A stretch of 49,315 nucleotides of DNA, filler included, from Sphacelaria rigidula (taxonomy: Eukaryota): NCBI GenBank assembly GCA_964200075.2. It is 2 parts of 2 records of this genome, joined end to end, with 100 filler letters (N's around TTAATTAATTAA, not from the genome) between each part and the next. Parts side by side here need not be neighbours in the genome. Positions count along the whole stretch, not along the records: positions 24,729 to 49,315 come from CAXNAA020000196.1; 1 more part is not named here. One strand, given 5' to 3'. The position numbers and the translations under genes were made by a program. A model generated the notes under the pieces. That model ran no database searches and had not been told where the DNA came from. It saw only the letters and a program-made list of their open reading frames with translations. The stretch's first letter is position 1. Every line of letters begins with the position of its first letter. Of this stretch, positions 24,629-49,315 are shown one piece after another.

Positions 24629-24728
24629 NNNNNNNNNNNNNNNNNNNNNNNNNNNNNNNNNNNNNNNNNNNNTTAATTAATTAANNNNNNNNNNNNNNNN
24701 NNNNNNNNNNNNNNNNNNNNNNNNNNNN
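24629..24728. other. Artificial contig-joining spacer (N44 + TTAATTAATTAA + N44)
   Basis: Symmetric N runs around a 12-mer that puts stop codons in all six frames. Confidence 0.97.
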
Positions 24729-26410: not shown

Positions 26411-26479
26411 AAAGGGGCTCAATTGCGAGGTAGATTCCCCGATGTACCAAGATCCGCAAACGGTTTACGGACAGCCCAG

Positions 26480-26760
26480 AGCGGTCAACAAGATCAAGGA
26501 CTTCTCCGGACTGGATGGGATCGTTTCTGTACGGTGTTCAAATTCCCTACGTGGTCTAACCCGGCAGAGGGATCTACAAGAGCGGGAGTTGCCGAGACTG
26601 TTTGAGATTGTTTTGCACGGTGTTTAAATTCCCTACGTGGTCTAACCCGGCAGAGCAGTCAACAAGATCGACGACGCCTCCGGACTGGAAGGGATCGTCC
26701 TACACGGTGTTTAAATTCCCTACGTGGTCTAACCCGGCAGAACGATTATCAAGATCGACG
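26480..26760. repeat. ~87-bp tandem repeat, 3 copies
   Basis: acggtgttYaaattccctacgtggtctaacccggcaga near 26531, 26617 and 26704. Confidence 0.9.
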
Positions 26761-27496: not shown

Positions 27497-30400
27497 AGAA
27501 CAAGCGAACACGCCAACACGAGAACACGCGAATACGCGAGCACGCGACTACGCGAACACGCGAACACGCGAAGAGGTCTTTGTCATTTTATACCGGCTCC
27601 GTGTTGGGGCCGTGGCCATGCCACGAGGTAACGAACAACTATGGTTTGACTACAATATTTATTCAGTAGTGGTAACACAATATATGGTCTGGAAACGTAA
27701 TCCTGAAGGTGAAACTCAGCCTCAGGGTCAATCCTCGGGAATCCTAAATGAAAAAACCGAGCACCGACGACCAGACCGCCGAGGACCCGGTGGCCGAACA
27801 CGTGAAGACACACGCGAAGACGCGAAGACGCGAAGACGCGAAGACGCGAACACGCGAACACGCGAAGAAGCCAACACGCGAACACACGAACAAGTGAAGA
27901 CACAAGCGAACCCGCGAACACGCTAACACGCAAACACCCGAACACGTAAGACGCGAACACGCCAACAAGCCACCACGCCAACACGCGAACACACGATCAC
28001 GTGAAGACACACGCGAACCCGCGAACACGCTAACACGCCAACACGCGAACAAGCCAATACGCGAACACACGAACAAGCGCAAACACAAGCGAAGACGCGA
28101 ACAATGAAGACGCGAACAAGCGAACACGCGAACACGTCACACGCGAACACGCGAACACGCGAACACGCGAACACGCATACACGCGAACACGTCGTTGTCA
28201 TTCTATATCGGATTCGGGTTGTGCTCGTGGCCATACTATGAGGTTACAAACAACTATGGTTTGAATCCAATAAATATTCATTGGTGGTAACACAAGATAT
28301 GGTCTAAAACCGTATTCCTGAAGGTGAAACTCAGCCTCAGGGTCAGTCTTCGGGAATCCTGAATGGAGAATCCGAAGCACCGACGACCTGACCACCGAGG
28401 ACCCGATGGCCGAACACGTGAAGACGAAAGCGAACACGGGAACAAGGACACACGGGAAGAGGTCTTTGTCATTTCATATCGGATCCGTCTTGTGCTCGTG
28501 GCCATGCTATGAGGTAACAAACAACTCTGGTTTGAATCCAATAATTATGCAGTGGGAAAAACACAAGATTTGGTCTGGAAACGTACGTATTCCCGAAGTT
28601 ACAACTCAGTTGGGTCACATCTTTGGTAATCCAAAAATCGAAGAAGCCAACACGCGAACACACGAACAGGTGAAGACACAAGCGAACCCGCGAACACGCT
28701 AACACGCCAACACGTAAGACGCGAACAAGCGAACAAGCGAACAAGCCAACACAAAACGACATGAACAGTTGAAGACACAAGCGAACACGCCAACACGCGA
28801 ACACGCTAACACGCCAACACGCCAACACGTAAGACGCGAAGCGCGAACAAGCGAACAGGCCTACACGCGAAGACACGAACAAGTGAAGACGCAAGCGAGC
28901 CCGCGAACACGCCAACACGCCAACACGCCAACACGTAAGATGCGAAGCGCGAACAAGCGAACAATCCAACACGCGAACACGAGAACAAGCAAACACGGGA
29001 AGAGGTCTTTGTCATTTCATACCGGATCCGTGTTGTGCTCGTGGCCATGCTATGAGTTAACAAACAACTTTGGTTTAAATGCAAAAAATATCCAGTGGGG
29101 GTATTACAAGATTTGGTCTGGAAACGTACGTATTCCTGAAGCTGAAACTCAGTCTTAGGGTCACATCTTTGGTAATCCAAAAATCGAACAAGCCAACACG
29201 CGAACACACGAACAAGTGAAGACACAAGCAAACACGCCAACACGCCAACACGTAAGACGCGAACAAGCGAACAAGCGAACAAGCGAACAAGCCAACACAA
29301 AAACACATGAACAAGTGAAGACACAAGCGAAGACGCGAAGACGCGAACAAGCGAACAAGTCAACACGCGAACACACGAACACGTGAAGACATAAAGCGAA
29401 CCCGCAAACACGCTAACACGCCAACACGCCAACACGTAAGACGTGAACAAGCGAACAAGCGAACAAGTCAACACGCGAACTCGTGAAGACATAAAGCGAA
29501 CCCGCAAACACGCCAACACGCCAACACGCCAACACGTGAGACGCGAACAAGCGAACAAGCCAACAAGCCAACACAAAAACACAAAAACAAGTGAAGACAC
29601 AAGCGAACACGCCAACACGCCAACACGTAAGACGCGAAGACGCGAACAAGCGAACAAGTCAACACGCGAACACACGAACACGTGAAGACATAAAGCAAAC
29701 CCGTAAACACGCTATCACGCCAACACGCCAACACGTACGACGCGAACAAGCCAACACGCAAACACACGAACATGTACGGACACAGACGAAGACTCGAAGA
29801 CGCGAACACGTAAAACGCGAAGACGCGACCTAGCGAACAAGCCAACACGCGAAGACGCGAAGACGTGAAGTCACAAGCGAAGACGCGAACAAGCGAAGAC
29901 GCGAAGACGCGGACACACGGACACGCGGACACGCGAACGCGCGAACATGCGAACACGAGAACACGCGAACACGTAAACACGCGAACACGTAAACACGCGA
30001 ACACGCGAACACGCGAACACGCGAAGAGGTCTTCGTCATTTCATACCGGATCCGTGTTGTGCTCGTGGCCATGCGATGAGGTAACAATCAACTATGGTTT
30101 GTATCCAAGAAATTTATAGTGGTGGTAGCACAAGGTTTGGTCTTGAAACGTATTCCTGAAGCTGAAACTCACCCTCAGGGTCACATCGTTGGGAATCCTA
30201 AATAAAAAAACCGAGCACCGACGACCTGACCGCCGAGGACCCGGTGGCCGAACACGTGAAGACACAAGCGAACAGGCGACCACGCGATCACGTAAGACGC
30301 GAAGACACGTACAAGCTAACAAGCCAACACACGAACACACGACCACGTAAAGACACAAGGGAAGACGCGAACAAGCTGACACGCGAACACGCGAACACGC

Positions 30401-31972
30401 GAACACGTAAGACGCGAACACGCGAACTAGCGAATGCGCGAACACGCGAAGAGGTCTACGGTCATTTCATACCGGATTCGTGTTGTGCTCGTGGCCATGC
30501 CTTGAGGTGACAAACAACTATGGTGTGAATCCCATAATTATTCAGTGCTGGTAATCCAAGATACGGTCTGGCAACGTATTCCTGAAGGTGAAACTCAGCC
30601 TCAGGTTCAGTCTTCAGGAATCCAAAATGGAGAAGCCGAGCACCGACGACCTGACCGCCAAGGACCCGGTGGCCGAACACGTGTGAAGACACAAGCAAAC
30701 ACGCGAACACGCAAACACGTGAAGACGCAAGCGAACAAGCGAACAAGCGAACACGCGAACACGCGAACACGAGAACAAGCAAACACGCGAACACGCGAAG
30801 AGGTCTTTGTCATTTCATGCCAGATCCGTGTTGTGGTCGTGGCCATGCCACGAGGTAACAAACACTATGGTTTGAATCCAAGACATATTCAGCGGTGGTA
30901 CCACAAGATATGGTCTGGAAACGTATTCCTGTAGCTGAAACTCAGCAAGCTGAAACTCAGCCGCAGGATCAACCTTCGGGAATCCTAAATAGAGAAACCG
31001 AGCACCGACGACCTGACCGCCGAGGACCCAATGGCCAAACACGTGAAGACACAAGCGAAGACGCGAACACGCGAACACGTAAGACGCGAGCACGCGAACA
31101 CGTAAGACGCGAACACGCGAACACGCGAACACGTGAAGACCAAAATGAACACGCGAACACGCGAACACGCGAACACGCGAACACGCGAACACGCGAATGG
31201 GTCTTTGTCATTTCATACCAGATCCGTGTTGTGCTCGTGGCCATGCCATGAGGTAACAAACAACTATGGTTTGAATCCAATAAATATATAGGGGTGGTAA
31301 CACAAGATATGGTCTCTAAACGTACGTATTCCTGAAGCTGAAACTCACCCTCAGGGTCACATCTTTGACAATCCAAAAAAGAGAAACCGAGCACCGACGA
31401 CCTGACCGCCGAGGATCCAATGACCGAACACGTGAAGACACAAGCGAACAAGCGAACACGCGAACACGCGAACACGTAAGACGCGAACACGCGAACAAGC
31501 GAACAAGCCAACACGCGAACACACGAACACCTGAAGACACAAGCAAACACGCGAACATGAGAACACGCGAACAAGCGAACAAGCGAACACGCGAGCACGT
31601 GAAGACACAAGCGAACACGCGAACAAGCCAACACGCGAACACGCGAACAAGCGAACAAGCGAACAAGCGAACAAGCGAACACGAGAACACGCGAACACGC
31701 GAAGAGGTCTTTGTCATTTTATACCGGATCTAGTTGTGCTCGTGGCCATGCCTTGAGGTAACAAACAACTTTGGTTTGAATCCAATAAATATCCAGTGGT
31801 GGTAACACAAGATGAAGTCTCAAAACGTACGTATTCCTGAACCTGAAACTCAGCCTCAGGGTCCCATCTTTGAGAATCCTTAAAAGAGAAACTGAGCACC
31901 GACGACCTGACCGCCGAGGACCCGGTGGCCGGACACGTGAAGACACAAGCGAAGACGTGAAGACGCGAAGAC
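27497..31972. repeat. Compound satellite: nine ~180-240-bp conserved units separated by variable tracts of degenerate 8-mers (ACACGCGA family)
   Basis: The unit (aagaggtctttgtcatttcataccggatccgtgttgtgctcgtggccatg…ggacccggtggccg) starts near 27571, 28191, 28457, 29000, 30024, 30449, 30798, 31197 and 31702. Intervening tracts run from ~40 to ~840 bp. Confidence 0.95.
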
Positions 31973-31999
31973 GGGGGTCACGCCTGATAACTTTCCATC

Positions 32000-33090
32000 A
32001 GTAGCCAATTCTTTTTCACGTGATGCTCATCGCAAAACTTCCTCTTGCGCTCAAGTTTATTTTTTTAATATGACGCCTCCTCGGTCTTCTCAACCAGCTT
32101 CTCCTTTCGAGACGCCATTCTGACCTCCTTCTCAGAATCGGCATTCCTTCCTAGTCAGAAACTTAATTGTTTTGTGCTTTCCAAGGAGCTCTTTCCTCAG
32201 AGATGCCACCACGGCTTGCAGGCGAGACGATCCCGCCATTTCGGATTCCCAATTATGTATTTGATCCTGCTGAGCCTTGTCCAGCATGGTTGCAAGGAAG
32301 AAATCCTTGACGGAGTCCAATTTGATACCACGCAAGGTGACGACGGGCTCGTTTGATGCATGAGAAATCGCGGCCAACATCATCTCCAGGAACTCGCCCT
32401 TCTCATCCTTCTCCAGAAGACTTTCTTCAGCGTGTCAATCGTAGCCTTGTCGTACTCAATATGCGCGCATCCGATCGACACGCTGGGAAGGGCATCGCCC
32501 GCTGGGAACAGATTGCTTTGCTTACGCGGCGGCTTCAACACTTTTTCTTGAAGCACGGCGAGCATTGGGTGGCGATGTATTCGATGTGCTCGTTGATGAT
32601 CTCCCGCGCGCCTTCCATGTCTGAAGATGTTACGCTTGCCGCGTACCCCAGATCGGACAGCGCGTGTCCGCGGCGCACGAGGCTCTCCATGACATTGAAG
32701 AATATGATCACGAACTCCACATCGCGTTCGCGCTTGATGGCCGGATGAATACTCTCCGTCTTTGAGATCAAGGTATTGATCAGGAGCTTGCGAACCCTGT
32801 CACTGCAAAGAGAAAACTTGAATATCCCCTCCATCGCGTGCCGATCAAAGTCGTCGATGCCCCGGAAGCGATCACAAACCTCTTTGGACAGGCCAGCTAT
32901 GTCCTTGCCTTCTGCGATGAGGCAATATGTAGGGCGATTTTTGGCCTTTGTGGCAGCCTTTGTGGCAAGAGGATCGCGCAACCCGAGTTTGATGTATTCT
33001 ATCGAGGCATTGATCAGGTTTGTGTTATCGCGATCGGTACCTTGTCCCGAGGAAGGAACGTCAAGACTTCGTCGTACGATGATTTATGAT
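32000..33090 (-). pseudogene. Frameshifted intronless ORF, virus-like, unknown product
   Basis: Consecutive ORF pieces 32535-32981, 32380-32565 and 32132-32383 read as one protein broken by frameshifts, with no splice signals. Confidence 0.55.
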
Positions 33091-34412
33091 CACCACCGTC
33101 CGGTTGTTGGTATCGGATTGCGTTCGAACATGTCGTGATCCTTTCGAACAGTGGTGATGGTGTAGTCATGACGACAGACTGACCAGATAGGTGTGAACTG
33201 CGGAGTGGTGTGGGATAGGGCGACTATTGTCAAAACTTTCGCGTGGGCGAACAAACGGCGGCAGCCAGTTTTCTGTGCAGAAATCGCCTTGAAAACAAAA
33301 ATCCAAACATCAACACCGCCGTAGTTTCTCCAACCGTTTTGATTTCTCCTCGATGTTGCTTTGCGGCCGACGGTAGAAGCCCCGCAGTAGAAGAACTTCT
33401 TCAGCGGCGCGTGAGAGCGGTTGGACGCTGCGGGCACGGATGGAGACCGTGTTGAGCCATTTGTGTCTCGAAGCAACAAAATGATCATATTGCACTGACC
33501 CCGTTTGTCCAAACATCTGGTTTCTCGTCGAAAGCGGCTGTGAACGTTTCGAATGCGTTTCGCTTTTGATGGTGCTATCCAGTGTTGCACGCTGCTGGCT
33601 ATGGTGCGGATGCTCTACCTCAAGCGATAAAAGCCCTGTACGCGCAAAGTCCCTCCCGCTCCTCTAGTCACTTTCCGATGATCGTACCCCCTGTGCGCGG
33701 CCACGCCTTCCAACAGCTTCTGTGTACGGTATTTTTCGTGAGGACCAAATGGTGACAACCAAGGAAGAAGACCGCAGTTCCTTGATGCGCGATAGATGCC
33801 TTATTTGGTCGGCCTCTCAGGTGCTTCGACCACCAATCCACAGTCACGCGAGGCGCGTTATACCACCGGTCGCATGCAGGGCCACGACGGAGGACGGCGG
33901 TGCCAGCATCCAGCGGCGGGCCTGACATGTTAGCCACATGGCAGCAGGGGCGCGGAAGCTCAGCGATGAGGGTGTATTTCATTTGTACTCCCTGTTTGGC
34001 CTTGCGACCTTGACTGTTCATTGTGTTTCGTGGCGTATTACACTTGTTTTTCAGGAGCAATGACTGTGGTATTTTTGTACTTTTAAGACGCGGGCGATTC
34101 GCCCCACACCATCCTGCCCTGTTTTGTTCCCAGGTACTATTCGGGAGCGCTACTAACGGAAGCAGCTGACACGGGCATGTTGGCGGAGAGTTGTGGGGAG
34201 GGGATGGCAGAGAGCGGAAGGGCGTGGGGACAATTATGATAGGGGGGGGGAGAGGTGCAGATAGCGCGTCGATATTCAAGAGTTCGGGGTGCTCGCGTGA
34301 GTCTGGAGAAATTAAACCATGTGCTTTCGTATGGCACGCGGTTGCCTGCTTTTCATCAGCTGGCGGTGTGCGAGATGGAACACGTTGAGGGTGTCTTGGC
34401 CTCAATACCAAG

Positions 34413-34930
34413 TCACCGGTACGTTAGAGGCACGCAAACGGCCCCTGTGATTTGAGGCAGATTTTCGGGGTCTATTTTGCACGGATTTGGTCGCGGTGGA
34501 ACCTTTGTTTTAGTCGCATTTTTGCACTCCCACTTTTGGTAGGCGCGGTAGAGGCGGCGCAGGTTGTCAGGGGCTTGGTATTGTTGCCGCCAATTAAGCA
34601 ACCTTGGCGCTTGGCCTGCCCAAAAAAAAGAAGAGCGCGGTAGTGCAGTCGTCGCCTCTATGCAACCTCGTGTGATACAAAAGACGTTGCGCTCGATGTG
34701 CAAGAGCTGAAGTGTTTCGATCCTCATATCCTCGCGAAAACGTTTCATTTATGTCTTTGACATCGGTTTTCGGACAACAAACACGGCATCTTTTGAAGGA
34801 ACACCTTGCCGCCCACTTGTTGCCACATTGGCAGACTCTGCTGTTTTTGTCTCCCAGCAACTGCTCTTCCCTTATCCTCCGTCGTTCGCGCATGAAAAAA
34901 TCCTGGCGGGCGGAACTCACGCAATAGCTG
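34413..34930 (-). pseudogene. Decayed ORF(s) including a Cys-rich SHI/STY-like zinc-finger motif
   Basis: VCQCGNKWAARCSFKRCRVCCPK resembles the CxxCGNxAxxxCxxxRCRxCC spacing; followed by ORF 34413-34748. Confidence 0.4.
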
Positions 34931-35317
34931 TAGCGAAAACAAAACTGGTACTGCCTGCACAATCGATGTTGATTAACCGCCCTCCTTTTCTGCAGCGTCC
35001 ATCTCGCGCAAACGCCGTAATCACCCACGTTAAAATACGAACGGGCGCCGGCCGACACGCGTGGGGCCAATGTGCCCCGGCGCGGGTAAAGTAAATTCTC
35101 TTGTTTTGAGACGGTGATAGGGGAGAGGCACGTGTGGCACCCCCGGTTCGTTGCCGCCGTGGGATCCTCTGCTACCGGCTCCATCACGCTCACTGAAACA
35201 ATTCGCGGACAAGCGAGGGGAGCAGTCGCAAAAAACAACATTGCAAATTGCAAACATCATCACTGATCATTCGAATCCGGGAACGACGAACAAATGCCAG
35301 GCACGCGCGCGCACATT

Positions 35318-35746
35318 CTACCTGGTCTCGGAAACAATATTGCTCGCTGACGTAGACATCGATCTCGTGACTGCCTTCTTGCCCGATGCGAAGTCCAGGC
35401 GTCGTTCGCTGGAGCTTTCCGACGCTCCAAAAGCGTCGTCTACGCCAACATTCCGGCCGTTATCGAAAGCGTCAAGAAGAACATGACCAAATTCCAGAGA
35501 GAAACCCTCTGCAGCCTCCCGCAGAACCCGGGTATCTGACACCTGAAGGCCATTGTCGAGCGCCAAGTGCATCGTTTGTGGAAATAGTTGCAAAGGGGGA
35601 ATGCGAGGGCCCTCGGGAATCCCGGCGCACCCGAACTGCACCATGGGCCTCGAGGTCAACTTGCGGTGCATCCGGACCGGGACACCTGATGAGCTCGTGC
35701 CTCTCGTGCGGTCGACAATGCCGGTCAACGTTACAAGTCGTACCAT
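35318..35746 (-). CDS. Short intronless hypothetical protein (142 aa), virus-like island
   Basis: ATG-started open frame with protein-like composition; no recognised domain. Confidence 0.4.
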   Translation of the reverse strand: MVRLVTLTGIVDRTRGTSSSGVPVRMHRKLTSRPMVQFGCAGIPEGPRIPPLQLFPQTMHLALDNGLQVSDTRVLREAAEGFSLEFGHVLLDAFDNGRNVGVDDAFGASESSSERRLDFASGKKAVTRSMSTSASNIVSETR

Positions 35747-35945
35747 GGTCCATACACTTACGAGACAGAAATGCCCAAACCTATCCTCGGTGCCATCCCG
35801 GGAAACATGATATTCGTTTACTAGAACGGATCACGCCCACGAGGTCAACGCTTGGATAGAGAGAGTTCGCCAAGAGAGGCGCGTTAAACAAGGCAAGTGC
35901 AAACGAGCGGCGGCGGATCGGAGGAACGCGCGATAGAAGACACAG

Positions 35946-36357
35946 ATGGGCGTGAACGAACAAAGGAGCACGTCGATCGAGGCCATCGTGAATATCACTG
36001 TGGGTGCGCATGGTACCGAAGAGCGCGAAGAAGTGCGTGTCGAAAGTGTCCGCGGAGGGAAGCGTCGCCGCGATCGCCGTCGTCCGCGCCAACGCAGATC
36101 TCTCTGGCGAGATCCACGTGATCATCCTGTCACCGGGATGTATACGGCCATGCACGCAAGAGTTGGAAGCCGCTTACGCGTTGGCTCGGATAGTCGGAGA
36201 GGAAGCGGTATCCTTGCTTCGTCGGGACCGCCGCATTCGACCGCGCAAGCGGAGCTTGTCGCGCGTGCAAAAAAGAGCGGACGAGGGAAGCGATGGCTGT
36301 GGCTCGTCAGGACAAGTACATGATGAAACAGCCCGTGATAGCGATGGTGGCTTCTGA
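35946..36357 (+). pseudogene. KilA-N/BRO-like DNA-binding protein relic of NCLDV type
   Basis: STSIEAIVNITVG (frameshift) …ADLSGEIHVIILSPG…AYALARIVGEEAVSLL resembles the SVIDVI…T-G / ADxxGxxxIIxxLPG…AxxLxRxxGGDxSL pattern (recognised from memory). Confidence 0.45.
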
Positions 36358-36573
36358 TGATACTAGGGTTAGCGTATTCGCGCTTCGGGAGGTTGTAGCC
36401 CTACTAGGGGAAGTAAGGATATTTAGCGTTCAACCAATCAACTTTTCTGGAGCGTTCTCTCCAGTGTGTACGCAAAACATGCGACTTGAAATGCTCGTGC
36501 CCGTCGCTCACAACTGATCATCGCCGTCTTCAAAAGCCAAACAAATTACTTCAAGAAAACCAGAAACAACAAT

Positions 36574-36900
36574 ATGAACAACGCCATGGACACCAAGATC
36601 GACGTCGACCAAGAATCGAACAAGGCCGCGACCGCGGGTCTTGGTGACACACCAACCGGATTTAGGTTTATATCTGGTGAAGATCGCAAGTAGTTCGCCA
36701 AACAAATGGTCGAGCAGTGTCTTAAACGTAAGCGTCAGGAAATCGAAGAAAAGGAGATTTCGCTCAAGCGCAAGCGCAGCGATCACGTCATGAGCTGCTA
36801 CGAGTGAATGACCGAATTCGGCTTTGAGCTCGATTCGCGCACAGTATTTCATATTTTTTATACCATGGCCGTCCTCACCCAAGTAGGCGTTGGTGCCGAC
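36574..36900 (+). pseudogene. Coiled-coil virus-like ORF relic with in-frame stops
   Basis: aacaatATG NNAMDTKIDVDQE…DRK*FAKQMVEQCLKRKRQEIEEKEISLKRKRSDHVMSCYE*MTEFGFELDSR. This frame is not in the ORF track because of the stops. Confidence 0.5.
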
Positions 36901-37094
36901 GATGAGGTGCTTTCAACTTGCTGGTCTTGTGAGAGCTTTTCGTAAAGTGCCTGTCTTTGTGATTATAACGGTCAAGAACGCGCATTCGTTTTCCTCCAAA
37001 ACGTGTGTTTGAAACTTTCAAAGCTTGTGTACCATGGACGCCATCCAAAACATGGAAAATGTTCCCATCCGCGTGAACATCAAATCAAAACGGG

Positions 37095-37965
37095 AAGCTT
37101 TGTACAACAACACGGTCAGGAACAACGCGCACGGCATACGGTTCTCTGTTTGCTCTTGCAATAACGTGGTGGCCAGCAACACATTTGAGGACAACACCGG
37201 TTACGATGTGTACCAGTACCGGGTAATGATCCCGTGGTCGAGGTAGAGAGCGGCAACCCAAAGAACAAAATGTGCTATTCGCGAATAAGTTTTCCGGAAA
37301 TGCCGGTGGTGTCCGGCTGGATGACTCTGCGGTGCCTAGTTTTAGTCCAACAGTGTTGAAGACTGCCTAACTTCGAGTTTAGGATTTCGGACAATATTTC
37401 GAGCGTCTCTTGCCTCAACTTTGCCTCGGGTGTTGATTTCGGAGATGTTTGTAGCGACGCTGCCATCTCCAACCCTTTCGGCCAGGGAGATTTCGATCGT
37501 ATTGTTGGTGGGGGAGATGAGATCACCACAACCCAAGCCACCTCTGATTCGAAAATGATGTGTTCTTCGCTTCCTGGTAGTAGCAGCGGTAGTGTACCAC
37601 CCTCTGTTTCTTCGCTGACGGCCGCGCCCACTGCTTCGCCGGGCTCATTTGTTCACACACTGATCCTCACGGCGGTGCCGAGGGATGTAGTCATTCCTTC
37701 TGAATCAAGCTCAGGTTCTAGTGGTGTTGGTGGCGGTGGGGGCAGCGGGGGCGGCGGAAATGACGAAACGGGAGGTGGTGATGGGGGTGAAAGCGGCGAT
37801 GATGATGAGTTTCGTACCATATCACCCACATCTAGCCCACCTGCGGGTGGTGTCCCAGTGGCGCATGATGATTTTACCCAAGACGTAAATGGCGGCGCGT
37901 CACGTTTTGTGTATAGGGTGTTGGGGGGCATTCGTTTGGTCGCGGTTATTTGTACTGTCATGTGA
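37095..37965 (+). pseudogene. Mannuronan C5-epimerase-like (parallel beta-helix) 3' fragment, intronless and frameshifted
   Basis: YNNTVRNNAHGIRFSVCSCNNVVASNTFEDNTGYDVYQY / GNDPVVEVESGNPKN / NVLFANKFSGNAGGVRLDDS are PbH1-type repeats. They are followed by a Ser/Gly/Pro linker and a hydrophobic C-terminus (ORF 37555-37965). Confidence 0.7.
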
Positions 37966-38257
37966 AAAAAACGTGGCCAGTATTGAAATGATGAAATAAA
38001 TAAACTCAAATCTTTTTTATCTCAGCCATGTAGATGCTACCCTGGTGTCTGCCACTACGGAATCTTTACCAAGCGTTGCTCATCTGCCCGCCGACCCCTG
38101 TCACTCTCTTTCAAAACATCGCCCGCAAAGACGGTGCTAAACACATCCATATGCCAAGGTCACCCGTCTCTGCATCAATCGCAAAGCTCATCCGTGTATG
38201 ACATCTCGAGATCGTTGCCATACCGGTGTTGCAACTGCCGCCGGATAACCGAGGCCA

Positions 38258-40231
38258 TTACACGTCGTCAAGGCGCCTCCTCTTCTTCCTCTTGGACTTG
38301 ATGTGGATGTTGAGCTTCGAACGTGCGGCGCCGATATCGATCGCCGTGTCATCTTTGGCCTGGTAGGCAGCTTGGAGTGTATGTTCCCCCAGGGAGGGGG
38401 CGTGCTTCTTGATCACCCGGAGGGCCTCGAGAAAGTCCTCCGCGGTTCTGAATGAACAAGCCCTCTTGTTCAACCACTTCGGGACTTCTTCCTGCTGTAC
38501 AAAGTCTTTGAATTTCTTTCTCTTGCTGACCTCTACCCCAGACACAATCCTCTCCAGACGGATGCCAAGGGCGACATCTGCTGCCAGAATGTCCATGAGG
38601 CTCTTGCTCTCCGGTTCCGGCACCCGACCTACCCTAACCAATACGGAGTGGAAGCAGGTTGTTTTGACATCCCCATTGGCGCCTCTCTTGGCGCTCTCGG
38701 CGCTGACCGCATCCGCGAAATAGGGCGCGGTATGGGGGTGCATCGTGATGGCGTCGAAGAGCCGGCAGCGGTCATCTCCTGAGGGTATAGAGCGAAAGAC
38801 CTTCAAGAACCGCGTCGGGATGACGGCCTCTACGTTCCTCTGGTGTTCCTCCTTCTCCTCCCTGTCCTTCAAGATGGCGCAGGCATGATTCCTTGCTGCC
38901 TCTATCGCGTCCCTGTTGTTGGCCCCGGGGTCCAGGCTGGCGATCTCCTGCAGTAGGGTTCCCATGTCGATGGTCTCACCAAGCTGGGCGTTGACAATGG
39001 TCTTGAAGTCGACAGAGGGGTGCTTGTGGATGAAATCAAAGGCTCCGACACAGTCCTTTCCCTCTCTGAACTTCAGACAAAAGGGCCCGAACCATCCCGC
39101 GTCGCGCACAAATTGTGCAAAATCCTTGCCGGACTCGTGAACTATCTCCTTTTTAAGTTTGATCTTGTGCTGTACACGCAGGGCTTCAGCCAAGGATTTC
39201 TCGTCCTGTTCGGGGGTTCTTGTTGCCTCTCTGGCGATGACCCTTGCTGCCTCTATCGCGTTCTTGTTGTTGGCAGCGAAGTGCCTGAGGGAGAGTTCCT
39301 CCGGGAACAACCCCGGGATCCCCTTCCTGATGGAGTAGAACGAGTGTTGCCCTTCGCCCTTGCCCTCGTCACCGCCCTTGCCTTTCTCTTTGCGTCCGCC
39401 CTTGCCCTTGCCCTCGCCCCCGGCCTTGTCCTCGCCCTTGTCCTCGCCCTTGTCCTCGCCCTGGTCCGTGCCTCCGCCCTTGTACTTGCCCCCGCCCTTG
39501 CCCTTGCGCCGGCCCTGGTCCTTGCCCTCGCCCTCGTCCTTGACCCGACCCGGGTATTTCGCGCGACATAGCAGACCGTCGAGGAAGGGCACCATGTCAA
39601 CATCGATTCCGTAGTCGGTAGTGCTGGCCTCGTGCTTGCGTGCGCAGCTAGTGCACCACGGAACTCCTTGTAGCACTGAAAGTCGTGCGTCTTTCATTTT
39701 CCCTGTGCGACCGGCTGATGAACACTTCCCATCGCAGGCCATGCACGTCGCGTTGATCGCGGCCTCGGCGTATTTGGAGCCATGGAGGAGCGGCCGGGAA
39801 CGCTCGCCATTCTTGAGAAGTTCATCTAAGATAGTATCTCCCTTGATCGTGGCTCCGATGTTATGGGTGAGGAAGCGTCCAAAGTGCACCAGGGCTGTAT
39901 TGCTCTCTGGAAGCTTGATCACGTTAGGGTTTCTGCGTTCCACGCTCTTCGGGCTGTGAAGATTGATTGGCTTGTTCAAACACCACACTGCCGTTGCAAT
40001 TGCAGACAAGCCAAGGTAGTCTTCTATCTCGTTGTTGAGATTGTAGCTGGTGATCTCCGTGATCCTTTTCTGCTGGCCTTTCACCTTCACCTTCACCTCA
40101 AACTCCCCCTCCAGGATCGGAAACATCGGGCGCCCTTTACGTTTACCTGGGGAAAAAGCACATGGGAAACAAGAGTGCGTTTGAGAAAACCGCGTAACTT
40201 TGGAACAGCGATAACGAAACAAAGGACTCAT
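38258..40231 (-). CDS. Intact orphan protein, 657 aa (622 aa from ATG 40126): CxxC…CxxC motif, G/K/E/D low-complexity linker, three degenerate helical repeats, C-terminal NLS
   Basis: 1.97-kb stop-free frame with G/C-rich third positions; CMAC-x26-CTSC; ANNKNAIEAAR/ANNRDAIEAAR duplication; KSKRKKRRR tail. Confidence 0.85.
   Translation of the reverse strand: MSPLFRYRCSKVTRFSQTHSCFPCAFSPGKRKGRPMFPILEGEFEVKVKVKGQQKRITEITSYNLNNEIEDYLGLSAIATAVWCLNKPINLHSPKSVERRNPNVIKLPESNTALVHFGRFLTHNIGATIKGDTILDELLKNGERSRPLLHGSKYAEAAINATCMACDGKCSSAGRTGKMKDARLSVLQGVPWCTSCARKHEASTTDYGIDVDMVPFLDGLLCRAKYPGRVKDEGEGKDQGRRKGKGGGKYKGGGTDQGEDKGEDKGEDKAGGEGKGKGGRKEKGKGGDEGKGEGQHSFYSIRKGIPGLFPEELSLRHFAANNKNAIEAARVIAREATRTPEQDEKSLAEALRVQHKIKLKKEIVHESGKDFAQFVRDAGWFGPFCLKFREGKDCVGAFDFIHKHPSVDFKTIVNAQLGETIDMGTLLQEIASLDPGANNRDAIEAARNHACAILKDREEKEEHQRNVEAVIPTRFLKVFRSIPSGDDRCRLFDAITMHPHTAPYFADAVSAESAKRGANGDVKTTCFHSVLVRVGRVPEPESKSLMDILAADVALGIRLERIVSGVEVSKRKKFKDFVQQEEVPKWLNKRACSFRTAEDFLEALRVIKKHAPSLGEHTLQAAYQAKDDTAIDIGAARSKLNIHIKSKRKKRRRLDDV
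39350..39545 (-). repeat. Coding 6/12-bp minisatellite (ggcgaggacaag / ggcaag) within the orphan ORF
   Basis: Encodes GEDKGEDKGEDK…GKGKGG without breaking frame. Confidence 0.85.
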
Positions 40232-41880
40232 CTCGGATTTAGCGCAGTCAACAAAACTCCCTCTAACCTGAGTTGAGAAAAATGGGCGGGAAAGTGCAGG
40301 CTACCTCATAGGGGAGGGAGGGGATGAACGACGCAAACGGATGTCACTCATTGTGCGATCTGTACCCGCCCCAATCATGAGACATCGCCCGAATGTTTTT
40401 GAAGTCAAGCGATAAGCCACGCCAACCACGCTCTCAGCACGCCCCCGATCTTGCTAGAGAGAAACACAAGACAGGAATATCTCATTCACGGCAGTGACCT
40501 GTGCAACAGCAGATTTGAACTACCAACAACAGTCCCTCTTACCCTCGTCACTCTGACTCATCCTCCTCCTTGCTATTTTTCCAGTGGCAAGTCGGTTGGC
40601 GGGCTTGGATTGGTGGATACTACCTCGTGCTCTCTGGTGTGTGGTCATCAGGGTAGTTGGGGATGGAAATATGAGATCGGTGTGCCGCACACACAAGAGC
40701 GCGGTGGTAGCAATTTCAACTCTGATAATTAAAAAACGCAAAAACACGCAAAGTGGCGGTCGCAGCGGTCATTTATTTGTCAGCAGGAGCACGATTTTGC
40801 ACAAGTCTGTTGTTAGCTGGCCAGCTGATCGTGCTGGATGCCATCTGCGTGTCGTGCGTGGACGCGTGGTGGTGGCGTGGGGGTCCAACATTAGACTAAC
40901 TGCTGCTGCTCTTGCGACAGTACAAACGCTCAATTGTCGTGGCAGCAGAATACACGCTTCCTGCCAGAAGTACATAGCTACGAGTCTCTACATCTCTCCC
41001 TTCCGTGGAGCTCTGCGTGTTGGTTCAAGTTCGATGTGTGTGCCGTTTACGTCGACCCATCGCTCTTTCGGTTGTGAAGGTAAACCGTCGGAAATGTCAG
41101 AGAAGATCTCTAGCTGGGTTTTTACTAAGTTTGTGATGGGTACGTGACGAGGATCATATATCTAGCGCTAGCAACCTGAGATGAATCCAACCAAGAACAG
41201 GTGATGATTTCACGCCTGAGGCGTGCGGATCCAGCACGGACAGCCGCATCAAAGGTGACTAATGCGTAGAAATTCGCTTGTTTTCTGCGGAGACTGGGGA
41301 GACTGTCAAGTAGCGCTGGACCGTCTGGCACATCTGAACACACCTTGGCTTTCGACCGATGAAACTCACGTCCTTCCCTCTAGACGAAAGAGCTCTGAGA
41401 GAAGAGATGCGTGAGGGTAGTACGCTCTCTGTCAACGTCCTCACACGTCTCCGTCCGCGCAGATGGGCGTGTGTCGTTCGTTGGGGACGATAGAACCCCT
41501 TCCCCGTGTTTTGAAAAAACAGCCTCTTTTTTCGGTCATTTTGGGGACAAACTATCCCCGAAAAATGCCAAGTTTACCCTCGTAGATTCGGTATAGGTCC
41601 ACAAATTACACTGAAACCACACGTCCCGACATACTCTCACCACACAACACGACGAGGACACGCCAGCGACAGGCGGCAGTGGGAGTGCACTTTTTTTGGT
41701 ACGCAGCAGCAGAGCACAGGCTGGTCTTGAAGACCAGAGGTGCGCGACTGCAAAGCAGATTTGGCTTCCGGCGCTTCGCTGTGGGGCAACTCCACCCCGA
41801 AAAGTGCCGGGGTTCGGGTTAGGATTCCCTTGATTTCTTTTTTTCTTATTTCCCTTCCATTCACTTTTCAAAGAGAAAAG

Positions 41881-42495
41881 GCAAGCGCTGGAGCGGCCCG
41901 TGCCTCTAAACGCCTCACGAGATCTAGCACGAGCTCCGGGACCACGTTGGTGGCGTTAGCTCGCCTGGCCGAGGCGCAACCGCTGTCGGTCGAGTCTCCC
42001 CCCGGGCACGTGAGTTTCCCCCTAAAGTACAGTACAGCATGTGTTGACTACATTCAGCCTTGCAATTCTTACAAGATCTTCACCAGTTAAAAAACAATTC
42101 ACAGGCAAGCAGCGGAGCGGCGGCCCTTACGACATCGAGGGAGAGCTCCAGCAAGACGGCCACGGACCACCGCTCCAAGCGGAGGAGGAACCCCAGACTT
42201 CCCCCGAGCACGCAAGCGTGCCTCCAAACTACAATTTATACTGACACATCGTTCTATGTAATTTCATTTATTTGAGGTGCGCCCGGGCACAACCTCTCCC
42301 GCGCCAAAATGGAGGAAGAAAACCATCCCGCCCCCGGCTTCGACACACGCTCCGGCCCACGCTTCGGCAACCATGGTGGCACCAGCCCCGGCCTCCACCC
42401 AGCCCCGTCCTGCCTCGACCCACTCTTCAACCCACGCTTCGGTAACTGTGGCGGCACCCGCCCCGGCCTCCACGCCACCCCGTCCTGCTGCGGAT
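41881..42495 (+). other. Possible exon-like pieces of a divergent Pro/Ala/Ser/Thr-rich gene, cut off by the satellite
   Basis: Segments 41881-42009 and 42105-42211 both start ag|GCAAGC and end CCCCCG(G/A)GCAC|g(t/c). GC-rich imperfect repeats follow at 42325-42490. Confidence 0.3.
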
Positions 42496-42499
42496 GAAA

Positions 42500-45400
42500 T
42501 TTGTGGGCGGTTAGATGAGGTTTCGGGTGTAGCTTGCCTGCTGGGAGGTCGTTCGATCAAGCTAAATAATAAACGACCAAGCGAGTTGTTTGGGGGCAAA
42601 CTCGGTGAGGCTTCGGGTGTGGTTTGCCTGCTGGCAGGGGTAACTAGTGGATATTCCAGCAGTATTTTCCCTGTTTGGGGGTAAACTATATGAAGATTCG
42701 GGTATAGTTTGCCTGCTCGAGGGATAACTCCTGGAAATTTCACGAGAAGTTACTCTGTTTGCGGGCAAACATGCTGAGGTTCCGGAGATTGTTTCGCTGC
42801 TGGAAGGGGTAACTAGTAGTTATTTCAGCAGTGGTTTCCCTGTTTGGGGGCATGCTAGATGAGTTGCCGGGTGTAGTTTGCCTGCTGGGAAGTCGTTCGA
42901 CCGAGCAAAAACAAATCACGACCGAACGTAGTGTATGGGGGCAAAGTCGGTAAGGTATCATGAGTAGTTTGCCTGCTGGCAGGGGTAACTAGTGGACATT
43001 TCAGCAGTGCTTTCCCTGTTCGGGGGCAAACAAGATAAGGATTCGGGTCCAATTTGCCTCCTTTGCCTGCTGGAAAGTCGTTCGATCGAGCAAAATACTA
43101 CACGACCAAGCGAGTTTTTGAGGGAAAAGTCGGTGAGGCTTCGGGTGTGGTTTGCCTGCTGGGGTAACTAGTGGAAGGTTCATCAGTAGTTTCCCTGTTT
43201 GTGGGCAAACTAGATGAGGAGTCGGGTGTAGTTTGCCTGCTAGGAGATCGTTCGACCTAGCAATAAAATTACACGACCGAACGTAATGTTTGGGGGCAAC
43301 CCCGGCGAGGCTTCGGGTGCAGTTTGCCGACTGGCAGGGGTAACTAGTGGGCATTTCAGGAGTAGTTTCGCCGTTTGGGGGCAAACTAGATGAGGTGCCG
43401 GGTGTAGTTTGCCTGGGAGGTCGTTCGACCTAAGCAAAAAAGATACACGACCGAACCAGGTGTTTGGGGGCAAACTCGGTGAGGTATCAGGAGTAGTTTG
43501 CGTGCTGGCAGGGGTAACAAGTGGAAGCTTCAGCAGTAGTTTCCCTCTTCGTGGGCAAACTAGATAAGGATTCGGTTATAAATTGCCTGCTGGGAGGTCG
43601 TTCGATTGAGCCAAAGAATACACGACCGAACGAGGTGTTTGGGAGCAAACTCGCTGAGGCTTCAGTAATAGTTTGCCTGCTGGAGGGAGTGACCAGCGGA
43701 CGTTTCAGCAATTTGTCTGTTTGGGGGGTAATTTGGTGACATATCGGGTGTAATTTGCCCTCTGGGAGGTCGTCCGATTGAGCATTAAAAATACGCCACC
43801 GAGCGAGGTGTTTTGGGGGGCAACCTCGGTGAGGCTTCGCGTATTGTTTGCGTTCTGGCAGGGGTAACTAGTCGAAGGTTCAGCACCAGTTTCCCTGTTT
43901 GATGGCATGCTAGATAAGGTTTCGGGTATAACTTGCCCGCTGCGAGGTCGTTCGATCGAGCAACATATTACACGACTGAGCGAGGTGTTTGGGGGCAAAC
44001 TCGGTGAGGCTTCGGGTGTGGTTTGCGCGCTGGCAGGGGCAACAAGTGAAAGGTTCAGCAGTAGTTTGCCTGTTTGGGGGCAAACTATATGAGTTTGCCT
44101 ACTGGGAGGTCGTTCGATCGAGTAAAACAAATACACGACCAAGCGAGGTGTTTGGGGGCAAATTCGGTGAGGCTCCGGGTGTGGTTTGCCTGCTGGCAGG
44201 GGTAACTAGCGGAAGGTTCAGCAGTAGTTTCCATGTTTGTGGGTAAACTAGATGAGGTTTCAGGAGTAGTTTGCCTGCTGGGAGGTCGTTCGATTGAGCA
44301 TCAAAGATACACGACCGAACGAGGTGTTGGGGGCAAACTTGGTGAGGCTTCGGGTGTTGTTTGCCGGCTGACAGGGGTAACTAGTGGATATTGCAGCAGT
44401 ATTTTCCCTCTTTGTGGGCAAACTAGATGAGGATTCGGGTGTAGTTTGCCTGCTGGGAAGTCGTTCGATCGAGTAAAACAAATACACGACCAAGCGAGGT
44501 GTTTGGGGGCAAAGTCGGTAAGGTTTCAGGAGTAGTTTGCCTGCTGACAGGGGTAACTAGTGGACATTTCAGCAGTGGTTTCCCTCGTCGGGGGCAAACT
44601 AGATGAGGTTTCGGGTATAATTTGCCTGCTGGGAGGTCGTTCGATCGAGCAGAAATGATACACGACCGAACGAGCTGGGGGGCAAAGTCGGTGAGGCTTC
44701 AGTAGTATTTTGCCTGCTGACTTAACTAGTGCACATTTCAGGAGTAGTTTCCCTGTTTGTTGGCAAACTAGATGAGGTTTCGGGTGCAGTTTGCGTCTTT
44801 TGCCTGCTGGAGGCTCGTTCACACGACCAAGCGAGTTGTTTGGGGGCAAAGTCGGTGAGGCTTCGGGTGTAGGTTACCTGCTGGCAGCGGTAACTAGTGG
44901 ACATTTCAGCAGTATTTTTACTGTTTTGGGCAAGCTGTATGAGGATTCGGGTATGATTTGCCTGCTGGAAAGTCGTTCGATCGAGGAAAATACTACACGA
45001 CCAAGCGAGGTTTTTGAGGGAAAAGTCGGTGAGGCTTCGGGTGTGGTTTGCCTGCTGGGGTAACTAGTGGAAGATTCAGCAGTAGTTTCCCTGTTTGTGG
45101 GCAAACTAGATGAGGTTTCGGGTGTAGTTTGCCTGCTAGGAGATCGTTCGACCCAGAAATAAAATTACACGACCGAACGGAATGTTTGGGGGCTACCCCG
45201 GTGAGGCTTCAGGAGTAGTTTGCCTGCTGGCAGGGGTAACTTGTGGGCATTTCAGTAGTAGTTTCGCTGTTTGGGGTAAACTAGATAAGGATTCGGGTGA
45301 AGTTCGCCTGCTGGAGGGATAACTACTGGAAATTTCACAGTAATTTTCTCTGTTTGAGGGCAACCAAGCTGAGGTTTCGGGTGTTGTTTGCCTGCTCGCA

Positions 45401-48400
45401 GGGGTAACTAGTCGACATTTCAGCAATAGTTTCCCTGTTTGGGGCCATGCTAGATGAATTTCCGGGTACAATTTGCCTGATGGGAGGTCGTTCGACGACC
45501 GAACAAAAAAGATACACGACCGAAGGAGGTGTTCGGGGGCAAACGCGGTGAGGCTTCGGGTGTTGTTTGCTCGCTGGCAGGGGTAACTAGTGGACATTTC
45601 AGCAGTAGTTTCCCTGCTCGGGGGCAAACTTGATGAGGTTTCGGATGCAGTTTGCCTGCTGGGAGGTCGTTCGACCAGGCAAAATAATACACGACTGAGC
45701 GCGGTGTTTGGGGGCAAACTCGGTGAGGCTTCGGGTGTTGTTTGCCTGCTGGCAGGTGTAACTAGTGGATATTTCAGCAGTATTTTTCCTGTTTGGGGCA
45801 AGCTATATGAGGTTTCGGGTACAAACCGCCTGTTGGAGGGATAACTACTCAAGTTCCACGAGAAGTTACTCTGTTTGAGGGCCAACCAGCTGAGGCTTCT
45901 GAGATTGTTTCGCTGCTGGAAGGGGTAACTAATGGATATTTCAGCAGTAGTTTCACTGTTTGTGAGCAAACTAGATGAAGTTTCGGGTGTAGTTTGCCTG
46001 CTGGGAGGTCGTTCGATAGAGCAAAAACCAAATTACGACCAAGCGAGGTGTATGGGGGCAAAGTCGGTGAGGCTTCGGGCGTTGTTTGCCTGCTGGCAGG
46101 GGTAACAAGTGGAAGGTTCAGGAGTAGTTTCCCTGCTCGGAGGCAAACTACTGAGGTTTCGGGTGCAGTTTGCATCCTTCGCCGGTTGCGAAGTCGTTCG
46201 ATTGAGCAAAAAAGATACACGACCGAACGAGGTGTTTGGGGGCAAAGTCGGTGAGGTATCAGGAGTAGCTTTCCTGCTGGCAGGGATATCTAGTGGGCAT
46301 TTCAGCAGTACTTTCCCTGTTTGGGGTAAACTAGATGAGGATTCGGGTGCAGTTTGCCTCCTTTGCCTGCTGGGAGGTCGTTCGATTGAGCAAAAAAGAA
46401 GCACGACCGAACGAGGTGTTTGGGGGCAAACTCGGTGAGGTATCAGGAGTAGTTTGTTTGCTGGCAGGGATATCTAGTGGGCATTTCAGGAGTAGTTTCC
46501 CTCTTCGTGGGCAAACTAGATAAGGATTCGGTTATTAATTGCCTGCTGGGAGGTCGTTCGATCGAGCACAAAAGATACACAACCAAGCGAGTTGTTTGGG
46601 GGCAAACTCGGTGAGGCTTCGGGTGTAGGTTGCCTGCTGGAAGGGGTAACTAGTGGACATTTCAGCAGTACTTTTACTGTTTGTGGGCAAACTAGATGAG
46701 GTTTCGGGTGTAGTTTTCCTGTTGGGAGGTCGTTCGATCGAGCAAAACAAATACATGACCATGCGAGGTGTTTGGGGGCAAACTCGGTGAGGCGTCGGGT
46801 GTGGTTTGCCTGCTGGCAGAGGTAACTAGTGGAAGGTTCAGCAGTAGTTTCTCTGTTTGTGGGCAAACTAGATGAGGTTTCGGGTGTAGTTTGCCTGCTG
46901 GGAGATCGTTCGACCCAGCAATTAAATTACACGACCGAACGTTATGTTTGGGGGCAACACCGGTGAGGCTTCGGGCGTTGTTTGCCGGCTGGCAGGGGTA
47001 ACTTGTGGGCATTTCAGCAGTAATTTCCCTGCTCGGGGGCAACCTAGACAAGGATTCGGGTAAAGTTTGCCTGCTGGAGGGATAACTACTGGAAATTTCA
47101 CAGTAATTTTCTCTGTTTGAGGGCAACCAAGCTGAGGTTTCGGGTGTTGTTTGCCTGCTCGCAGGGGTAACTAGTCGACATTTCAGCAATAGTTTCCCTG
47201 TTTGGGGCCATGCTAGATGAATTTCCGGGTACAATTTGCCTGATGGGAGGTCGTTCGACGACCGAGCAAAATATTACACGACCGAACGAGGTGTTTGGGG
47301 GCAAACTCGATGAGGCTTCGGGTGTTGTTTGCTCGCTGGCAGGGGTAACTAGTGGATATTTCAGCAATATTTTTCCCGCTCGGGGGCAAACTAGATGAGG
47401 TTTCAGCAGTAGTTTGCGTGCTGGGGGGTCGTTTCACAAAGCATTCGAGATACACGACCGAACGAGGTGTTGGGGGCAAACTCGGTGAGGCTTCCGGTGT
47501 TGTTTGCCGGCTGGCAGGGGTTACAAGTGGGCATTTCAACAGTATTTTTCCTGCTCGGGGGCAAACTAGATGAGGCTTCGGGTATAATTTGCCTGCTGGG
47601 CGGTCGTTCGATCGAGCAAAAAAGATACACAACCAAGCGAGTTGTTTGGACGCAAACTCGGTGAGGCTTCGGGTGTTGTTTGCCTGCTGGCAGGCGTAAC
47701 TAGTAGTGGGCATTTCAGCAGTATTTTCCCTGCTCGGGAGCAAACTAGATGAGGATCCGGGTGCAGTGTGCCTCCTTTGCCTTCTGGGAGGTCGTTCGAT
47801 TGAGCAAAAAAGATACACAACCAAGCGAGTTGTTCGGGGGCAAAGTCGGCGAGGCTTCGGGTGTTGTTTTCCTGCTAGCAGGGGTAACTAGTGGGCATTT
47901 CAGCAGTAGGGTCTCTGCTCGGGGGCGAACTAGATGAAGTCTCGGGTGCAGTTTGCCTCCTTTGCCTGCTTGGAGGTCGTTCGATCGAGCAAAACGAATC
48001 ACGACCAAGCGAAATGTATGGGGGCGAAGTTGGTGAGGCTTCGGGTGTAGTTTTCCTGCTGGCAGGGGTAACAAGTGGGCATTTTAACAGTTGTTTCCGT
48101 GCTCGGGGGCAAACTAGATGAGGTCTCGGGTGCAGTTTGCCTGCTGTGAGGTCGTTTGACAAAGCATTCGAGATACACGACCGAACGAGGTGTTGGGGGC
48201 AAACCCGGTGAGGCTTCCAGTGTTGTTTGCCGGCTGGCAGGGGTTACAAGTGGGCATTTCAGCAGTATTTTTCCTGCTCGGGGTCAAACTTGGTGAGGCT
48301 CCGGGTATAGTTTGCCTGCTGGCAGGGGTGCCTAGTAGGCATTTCAGCCGTAGTTTCCGTGCTTAGGGGCAAACTAGATGAGGTCTCGGGTGCAGTTTTC

Positions 48401-49315
48401 CTGCTGGGAGGTCGTTCGATCGAGAAAAATAATACGCGACCAAGCGAGTTGTTTGGGACGAAACTCGGTGAGGCTTGGGATGTAGTTTGCCTGCTGGCAG
48501 GGGTAACTAGTGGATATTTCAGCAGTAGCTTCCCTGTTTGTGGGCAAACTAGATGAGGTCCCGGGTGTAGTTTGCCTCCTTTGCCTGCTGGGAGGTCGTT
48601 CGATCGAGCAGAAAACAAATCACGACCAAGCGAGGTGTATGGGGGCAAACTTGGTGAGGCTTCTGGTGTGGTTTGCCTGCGGGCAGGGGAAACTAGCGGA
48701 TATTTCAGGAGCCGTTTCCTTGCTTGGGGGCGAACTACATGAGGTCTCGGGTGCAGTTTGCCTGCTGGGATGTCGTTCGATCGAGCAAAATAATACTCCA
48801 CCAAGCGAGTTGTTTGGGAGCAAACTCGGTGAGGCTTCGGGTGTAGTTTGCTTGCTGGCAGAGGTAACAAGTGGATATTTCAGCAGTAGTTTCCCTGCTC
48901 GTGGGCAAACTAGACGAGGATTCGGGTGCAGTTTGTCTCCTTTGCCTGCTGGGAGGTCGTTCGATCGAGCAAAATTTTACACCGCCGAACGAGGTGTTTG
49001 AGGGGAAACTCGGTGAGGTTTCAGGAGTAGTTTGCCTGCTGGGAGGGGTAACTAGTGGACATTCCAGAAGCAGTTTCCCTGCTCGGGGGCAAACTAGAAG
49101 AGGTCTCGGGTGTAGTTTGCCTGCTGGCAGGGGTAACTAGGGGATATTTCAGGAGCAGTTTCCCTGTTTGTGAGCAAACTAGACGAGGTCCCGGGTGAAG
49201 TTTGCCTGCTTGGAGGTCGTTTGATCGTGCAAAAAACAAATCACGACCAAGCGAGGTGTATGGGGGCAAACTTGGTGAGGCTTCTGGTGTGGTTTGCCTG
49301 CTGGCAGGGGTAACT
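42500..49315. repeat. Satellite array, ~175-176-bp A/B heterodimer of ~86-90-bp monomers, running off the window end
   Basis: A shared core ggggcaaact(ag/cg)rtgaggyttcgggtgtrgtttgcctgctgg is followed alternately by gaggtcgttcgatcgagc…cacgacc… and caggggtaactagtggacatttcagcagtagtttccc…. The same motif recurs at 44105, 44281, 44456 and 44632. Confidence 0.97.

Follow-up and report, generated by a model that had tools for sequence, protein, structure and literature searches.

The DNA analysed here, which we call the window, is a stretch of 49,315 nucleotides (nt), filler included, from Sphacelaria rigidula (assembly GCA_964200075.2). It contains two tandem arrays, at 27498-~31975 and 42512-49315, and between them lie ~10.5 kb of DNA (31976-42511) that are single-copy within the window. 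An earlier note on this DNA had described the arrays as unrelated and as bracketing the interval, and Tandem Repeats Finder confirms both points. The interval holds an intact gene on the minus strand, here called the orphan gene, whose coding sequence ends at 38258. Convergent with it, on the plus strand at 37079-37965, is the decayed remnant of a beta-helix gene, here called the relic. Two Logan contigs, X1 (10,704 nt) and X2 (10,715 nt), span 31902-42605 and 31902-42616 with 0 differences; they may derive from the assembly's own sample and are not counted as independent support for contiguity.

The orphan gene and its protein

The open reading frame (ORF) at 38258-40126 (-) is 1.9 kb long and had been reported as intact. 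This is upheld by our analysis: 680 codons are open from stop to stop, compared with a mean of 213 and a maximum of 375 codons for the longest ORF in 200 dinucleotide shuffles of 31980-42500. GC content at the three codon positions is 0.57/0.41/0.72. The ORF is part of a spliced gene with two GT..AG introns just upstream on the minus strand. Intron 2 (40147-40542, 396 nt) is skipped in one contig each from the libraries X15 and X20 (joint 40142 to 40539, cut +4), and intron 1 (40634-41343, 710 nt) in one X15 contig only (joint 40633 to 41344). Both joints read CT..AC on the plus strand, equivalent to GT..AG on the minus strand, and the intron ends were checked. X20 is an RNA-Seq library, while X15 is assigned to RNA by guess only; their contigs are 88-97% identical to the window. 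Together they cover 38126-40144, with the 3' untranslated region (UTR) reaching below 38258. Gaps in RNA-contig cover within 31.5-43 kb do not show that the sequence there is silent.

Exon 3 (38258-40146) contains the whole ORF of 622 amino acids (aa), from the ATG at 40126 to the stop codon at 38258-38260, and joins the splice site within 40142-40146. Exon 2 (40543-40633, 91 nt) offers a second candidate start, an in-frame ATG at 40561, which gives a protein of 635 aa. Exon 1 (41344-41462, 5' end not defined) was placed by translation and by tblastn of the Ectocarpus sp. 12 gene models P0003 and P0012, which match 41274-41462; these models read through the same two upstream exons. Since an in-frame stop precedes exon 2, exon 1 is probably 5' UTR. 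The interval had been described as carrying intronless ORFs, and for the intact ORF, which belongs to a gene with two introns, that description fails. The arrangement is that of a spliced and expressed gene.

A phmmer search of 1.84 billion representative proteins returned eight relatives of the orphan protein (P0001). Two are near-identical, and the other six share 26-41% identity over either the N-terminal or the C-terminal part. Four clusters have a named member, in every case Ectocarpus sp. 12 or Pylaiella littoralis. Full-length orthologues with intact frames (616 and 618 aa) align at 93% identity (91% for P0002 by BLASTP). The listed length differences are 12 and 3 nt inside the coding sequence (CDS) and 4 nt outside it; 13 CDS substitutions are listed, 5 synonymous and 8 nonsynonymous. 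We infer a fast-evolving protein that may be under weak constraint, its frame kept open by selection. When 13 family proteins were compared with the window by tblastn, no second, decayed paralogue was found, and outside the ORF only the gene's own upstream exons were matched.

The family alignment defines an N-terminal domain with the pattern ...RPLL.G..Y..AA...TC..C...G.P.C.SC..., in which two CxxC pairs are conserved across the closer family members. The middle of the protein is a low-complexity linker of G, K, D and E residues. It is encoded by a microsatellite at 39347-39546 (-), a tandem repeat of 6/12/18 bp (Tandem Repeats Finder; repeat family D1) that corresponds to residues 195-260 of the 622-aa form and contains, at 39421, an in-frame 12-nt length difference in X15. 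Residues ~338-424 of P0001 align to ~536-634 (E 2e-5), marking the duplication of a helical module of ~100 aa; a third copy is probably present, and at the DNA level a 59-nt repeat ties 38891-38949 to 39242-39300. The protein ends in a KRKKRRR tail and has a calculated isoelectric point of 9.1. From these features we propose a nuclear protein that probably binds nucleic acid or chromatin.

The protein has no Pfam family at E<=1, and its PDB sequence profile gave no match beyond one at E 0.51. Searches of the ESM Atlas and the JGI metagenomes with P0001 gave no usable match and no match, respectively. A tblastn search of a phage collection was likewise negative, the collection being irrelevant to this DNA. 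Structural comparison of a low-confidence model by VIA-align against 48,161 chains of PDB representatives gave best scores of Z 5.5 (DnaD) and Z 5.0 (KorB), below the noise level for helical models.

The orphan gene resembles the taxonomically restricted (orphan) genes of brown algae in that it has few relatives, the named ones in Ectocarpales, and no Pfam domain. It differs from them in belonging to a small multi-member family with a Cys motif and a module duplication, and is not a de novo singleton. EsV-1-7 proteins are associated with brown algae and phaeoviruses. Membership of the orphan protein in that family is unsupported, given the absence of any Pfam family for P0001 at the threshold above. 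A general likeness to the EsV-1-7 cysteine-rich domain proteins (PMC12477816) lies in the Cys-rich character and the suspected zinc finger.

The beta-helix relic and the search for viral genes

The relic at 37079-37965 (+) is the 5'-truncated, frameshifted remainder of a right-handed beta-helix gene of the "alginate-epimerase-like" kind, recognised by Pfam, by protein homologues, by tblastn and by a nucleotide match to a viral contig. The ORF at 37013-37243 (+) matches two Pfam families, Beta_helix (PF13229) at E 5.9e-5, its 23.2 bits falling just below the cutoff of 25.9, and NosD at E 1.7e-4. Eleven homologous proteins, between 305 and 680 aa long and in several cases partial, were found at E 2e-14 to 2e-9. 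The homologues carry PF13229 and PF05048, and those with a name come from Pylaiella and Ectocarpus spp. In the full-length P0015, P0016 and P0019, a hydrophobic leader forms the N-terminus, a YGFDPHDD stretch is present and the C-terminus is hydrophobic. We take YGFDPH(D/E) to be the catalytic motif of AlgE-type epimerases.

By tblastn, the relic corresponds to about residues 341-680 of its 680-aa relatives, and residues 1-340 of any of 12 relatives have no match even at E<=20. The YGFDPHDD stretch and the signal-peptide region are therefore absent from the relic, as both lie before residue ~341. The remaining homology is spread over three frames (37079-37222, 37222-37704 and 37248-37352), with a frame change near 37222, and runs on into the ORF at 37360-37965. 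PbH1 repeats are present, while the intact frame and the N-terminal half of a beta-helix gene are missing.

Several lines of evidence connect the relic to phaeoviruses. One homologue, P0016, is 67% identical to a relative encoded on a 335,593-bp IMG/VR contig; the available excerpt of PMC2373305 gives this length for the sequenced EsV-1 genome. In the section of PMC9614988 at hand (2.6.3), an EsV-1 gene is described as predicted to encode an alginate epimerase. At the nucleotide level, 163 nt of the relic are 80% identical to an 11.7-kb locus (L001) of this EsV-1-sized contig. The closest match to the relic is a copy in an algal assembly (P0021, E 6e-35), not the viral contig. An old insertion of viral DNA, or a copy of such an insertion, probably left this relic behind. 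The "alginate-epimerase-like" piece next to the intact ORF, of a kind that the earlier note had named for phaeoviruses, is accordingly real, as attested by PF13229, by the homologues and by the nucleotide match.

The viral counterpart of the relic is a 661-aa beta-helix protein encoded at L001:4914-6899, presumably the EsV-1 virion glycoprotein gp1. Both have PbH1-type repeats, with 68% identity over 47 aa and then ~31% over 105 aa, and both have a Ser/Gly-rich tail and a hydrophobic C-terminus. The relic differs in being frameshifted and in having lost ~340 residues at the N-terminus, the signal-peptide region among them. By eye, P0019 (632 aa, 'Ectocarpus sp. 4') corresponds to residues 30-661 of the L001 ORF; if this likeness holds, the 'Ectocarpus sp. 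4' assembly would carry an EsV-1-like provirus copy.

Beyond the relic, the ORF scans detected no viral domain. For 31980-42500, 135 ORFs were scanned against Pfam (47 of >=80 aa and 88 of 45-79 aa); 14 of the 61 initial ORFs were left out, namely four in the left array, the big ORF, which was scanned apart, and nine overlapping the big ORF. No credible Pfam domain was found in 134 of the 135, the exception being the beta-helix relic. In the big ORF and the 135 others there is no nucleocytoplasmic large DNA virus (NCLDV) marker (MCP, PolB, A32, D5, VLTF3, SF2 helicase or integrase) at E<=0.01, and 140 ORFs from the left 27 kb gave none of these markers either. KilA-N/Bro-N is absent from the Pfam matches of the interval ORFs, the big ORF and the left-flank ORFs. 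A match to BNLF2a (E 0.0019 among 47 ORFs) is at chance level, as are left-flank matches of E 0.0028-0.0098 for the number of ORFs scanned. Compared by tblastx with L001, the 11.7-kb part of the EsV-1-sized contig to which this comparison of adjacent viral genes extends, the window matches at 37079-37467 only, within the relic.

The density of ORFs gives little sign of a viral origin. Between 31980 and 38257 there are 25 ORFs of at least 100 aa, compared with 12.8+-2.8 in shuffles (ratio 1.95), and the left 25.8 kb contain 46, compared with 28.0+-4.5 (ratio 1.64). The earlier description of ~10 kb of densely packed, intronless and mostly decayed ORFs does not survive this comparison with the flank, and a single decayed gene, the relic, can be demonstrated. 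The ~5.1 kb from 31976 to 37078 are unique sequence with no assignable gene, Pfam scans having given no match there. They contain two coding-like ORFs, at 32132-32434 (-) and 32535-33083 (-), with GC at the three codon positions of 0.55/0.34/0.59 and 0.52/0.41/0.64. No homologue of the ORF at 32535-33083 was found, the ESM Atlas giving a sub-threshold AAA-lid lead (0.87), and IMG/VR seed scans with both ORFs returned no relatives.

By tblastn, the orphan-family protein P0006 weakly matches L001:1321-1530 (E 0.099). The L001 ORF at this place carries a GPPGSGKT-type ATPase motif and is no relative of the orphan family, nor of the 182-aa ORF in the window.

Origin of the interval

We consider it likely that the window represents a repeat-rich brown-algal (Ectocarpus-like) chromosome with one phaeovirus scrap, a lineage-restricted gene and ~5 kb of unexplained sequence, and not an integrated virus. 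The relic would be the dead, frameshifted 3' half, 0.9 kb long, of a gene brought in by an old viral insertion or its copy. The orphan gene, with two short 5' exons and one long coding exon on the minus strand, would be transcribed towards the relic and would be restricted to Ectocarpales-type brown algae. The arrays would be ordinary neighbours and not partners of the orphan protein. As a fallback, the earlier note had suggested that the host has put one gene to use, and this fits orthologues that are spliced and occur in RNA libraries.

The available excerpt of PMC2373305 describes viral fragments that lie dispersed among repeats and pseudogenes in Ectocarpus DNA. The window resembles that description in having a viral-gene fragment preserved as a pseudogene among repeats. 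It differs in that only one fragment, of ~0.9 kb, is recognisable: a core gene and a second viral gene are absent, as is synteny with L001. In the part of 10.1101/2024.02.19.579948 available to us, viral regions of brown-algal genomes start at 2 kb, a lower size that the relic does not reach, and their genes are mostly monoexonic and transcriptionally silent. The intact gene in the window shows neither trait, as it has two introns and its orthologues appear in RNA contigs. Viral scraps in brown-algal genomes are well documented, and the relic adds one more case. The orphan family is of modest interest in its own right, as an expressed, fast-evolving, Ectocarpales-restricted family with a Cys motif and duplicated modules that lies beside viral debris.

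Several points weigh against this reading. The 5/8 split of synonymous and nonsynonymous substitutions is only weak evidence of constraint, and the function proposed for the orphan protein is read from its motifs. The mean predicted local distance difference test (pLDDT) score from AlphaFold is 43.6 over the full-length protein and 58.7 over the C-terminal module. The case for expression is weakened by the fact that the RNA contigs come from related strains or species and that one of the two libraries is of guessed type. A single coding exon of 1.9 kb is unusual for the intron-rich genes of Ectocarpus. The orphan gene lies 293 bp from a viral relic, so it may have a viral or mobile origin. No gene is assigned to the ~5 kb of 31976-37078, which include the coding-like ORFs. 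In the same region, contigs from the X20 RNA library match 33700-33918, 34244-34527 and 34952-35149 at 88-95%; most of these contigs continue into unlike sequence, and X15 and X20 share four variants at 33733-33743. A transcribed, dispersed repeat could explain the matched pieces, as could a gene that escaped recognition. Finally, the IMG/VR seed scans require exact words of eight residues and would miss distant viral relatives.

It is unlikely that the interval is an old, eroded phaeovirus insertion in which the orphan gene is a domesticated viral ORFan that has gained a promoter and two 5' introns. The phaeovirus-type relic is convergent with the orphan gene and close to its stop codon, the whole CDS lies in one exon, and ORFs are about 1.95 times as frequent as in shuffles. 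The reported excerpts on small, mostly monoexonic viral regions (10.1101/2024.02.19.579948) and on scattered viral pieces among repeats and pseudogenes (PMC2373305) would also accommodate such a history. However, the host flank has a similar ORF excess, there is no NCLDV marker domain, and the tblastx comparison with L001 matches the relic alone. The genes of viral regions are described as silent in the available part of 10.1101/2024.02.19.579948, whereas the orphan gene is represented in RNA libraries. Moreover, no member of the orphan family matches any viral protein or contig. The phmmer search gave no viral match, IMG/VR seed scans with three members (P0001, P0008 and P0013) gave no relatives, and a Foldseek search of BFVD with the C-terminal module gave no viral fold match (best E 0.99). 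The family alignment has no conserved stretch of 7-10 columns and could not be used as an IMG/VR seed. The proposals that the 10 kb are a viral segment, that KilA-N/BRO-like proteins are encoded there and that the orphan ORF is a viral gene are thus not sustained by the ORF scans and the family searches.

It appears rather unlikely that the orphan family is an ORFan derived from a phaeovirus or other giant element, captured by Ectocarpales, that it acquired two 5' introns along with a host promoter and that it has become a nuclear DNA- or chromatin-binding protein. Of the insertion that brought in the family, the relic would then be all that can still be seen. Such a capture would be a datable domestication of a giant-virus gene in a multicellular alga, and a viral origin of the family, if true, would provide a concrete example of giant-virus insertions seeding host genes.

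An origin from a non-viral mobile element, with the orphan gene as its domesticated or decaying gene and the unexplained 5 kb as the rest of the element, seems quite improbable. It would be in keeping with the single coding exon, the Cys-rich N-terminal domain, the internal duplication and the fast evolution of the protein. RNA contigs from other algae whose match to pieces at 33.7-35.1 kb gives way to unlike sequence (share 0.93 for X20) could also be accounted for in this way, as dispersed repeats behave like this. In contrast, Pfam scans of the interval revealed no transposase, integrase, reverse-transcriptase or helicase domain. There are no terminal direct or inverted repeats in 31600-42600, where 0 inverted repeat pairs were found and the direct families are internal, and the interval assembles as one unbranched contig in both X1 and X2.

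Tandem arrays and flanking sequence

The left array (27498-31975, +) is composite and not a plain 8-bp array. It consists of a unit of ~255-270 bp that is present nine times, in full or in part, each copy followed by a variable (ACACGCGA/ACAAGCGA)n tract. The units start at 27573, 28191, 28459, 29002, 30026, 30451, 30800, 31200 and 31704; because the last unit and its tract belong to the composite, the array ends at ~31975 and not at 31703. Mean column identity is 79% across seven aligned units. A blastn search of the window with the unit at 31704-32000 gave 12 matches, all inside 27573-32000.

The right array (42512-49315, +) is a satellite of 85-bp subunits with a higher-order period of 176 bp, present in ~33 copies from 42512 until it runs off the window end (Tandem Repeats Finder, blastn). 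Two of its units gave 87 blastn matches in the window, all inside 42512-49271, and neither array unit was found by blastn elsewhere in the window. The subtelomeric satellite of Ectocarpus has a monomer of ~98 bp with three TTAGGG, as described in the available part of PMC11541908, and the right array differs from it in its 85/176-bp period. TTAGGG is not enriched in the window (11 occurrences, compared with 15.9 expected), and one occurrence lies within the right array. A high summed depth at the array edges (~2,500-2,800, compared with 69.7) is not a genome-wide copy number, as reads of other monomers from the same arrays would collect there.

A viral origin of the arrays, which the earlier note had also entertained, finds no footing. 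The right-array motif has 0 exact matches in IMG/VR and none in JGI metagenomes, and the single IMG/VR match of a 24-mer from the left array, to a contig of 5,973 bp (L002), shares only a microsatellite of ~70 nt. It is highly improbable that the orphan protein works together with the arrays as a functional module, a repeat-binding nuclear protein beside its target array: the gene does lie between two arrays and encodes a basic protein with a KRKKRRR tail, CxxC pairs and a weak helical likeness to small DNA-binding domains (the sub-noise DnaD and KorB scores), but neither array is related to the other, the stretch is rich in tandem repeats, the fold matches are at chance level, and nothing found here speaks for such a module.

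Directly before the right satellite, a 75-bp direct repeat occurs twice at 42334-42483 (+; 80% identical; repeat family D3), ~0.9 kb upstream of exon 1 of the orphan gene as far as this exon is mapped. Left of the interval, further small arrays are found at 25899-26411 and 26477-26760, with a 40/81/121-bp unit and an 87-bp unit. Given these additional arrays at 25899-26760, tandem repeats are common in the stretch, and the bracketing pair is part of this pattern. Rfam and tRNA scans of the window found nothing.

The window had been expected to look brown-algal, and it does. The left 27 kb contain a Pkinase fragment (Pfam, 4.2e-9, in one of 100 ORFs) and no viral domain. By motif search only, the Pkinase match was assigned to a short ORF at 6968-7219 (-) with an LLADFG... 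stretch, probably a single exon from a spliced kinase gene of the host. A PTM/DIR17-like Tudor domain (PF21743, E 2.5e-5) was detected within 1-27400, in one of 40 ORFs of at least 110 aa. Two runs of N, 44 each, at 24629-24672 and 24685-24728, are assembly gaps or masked stretches.

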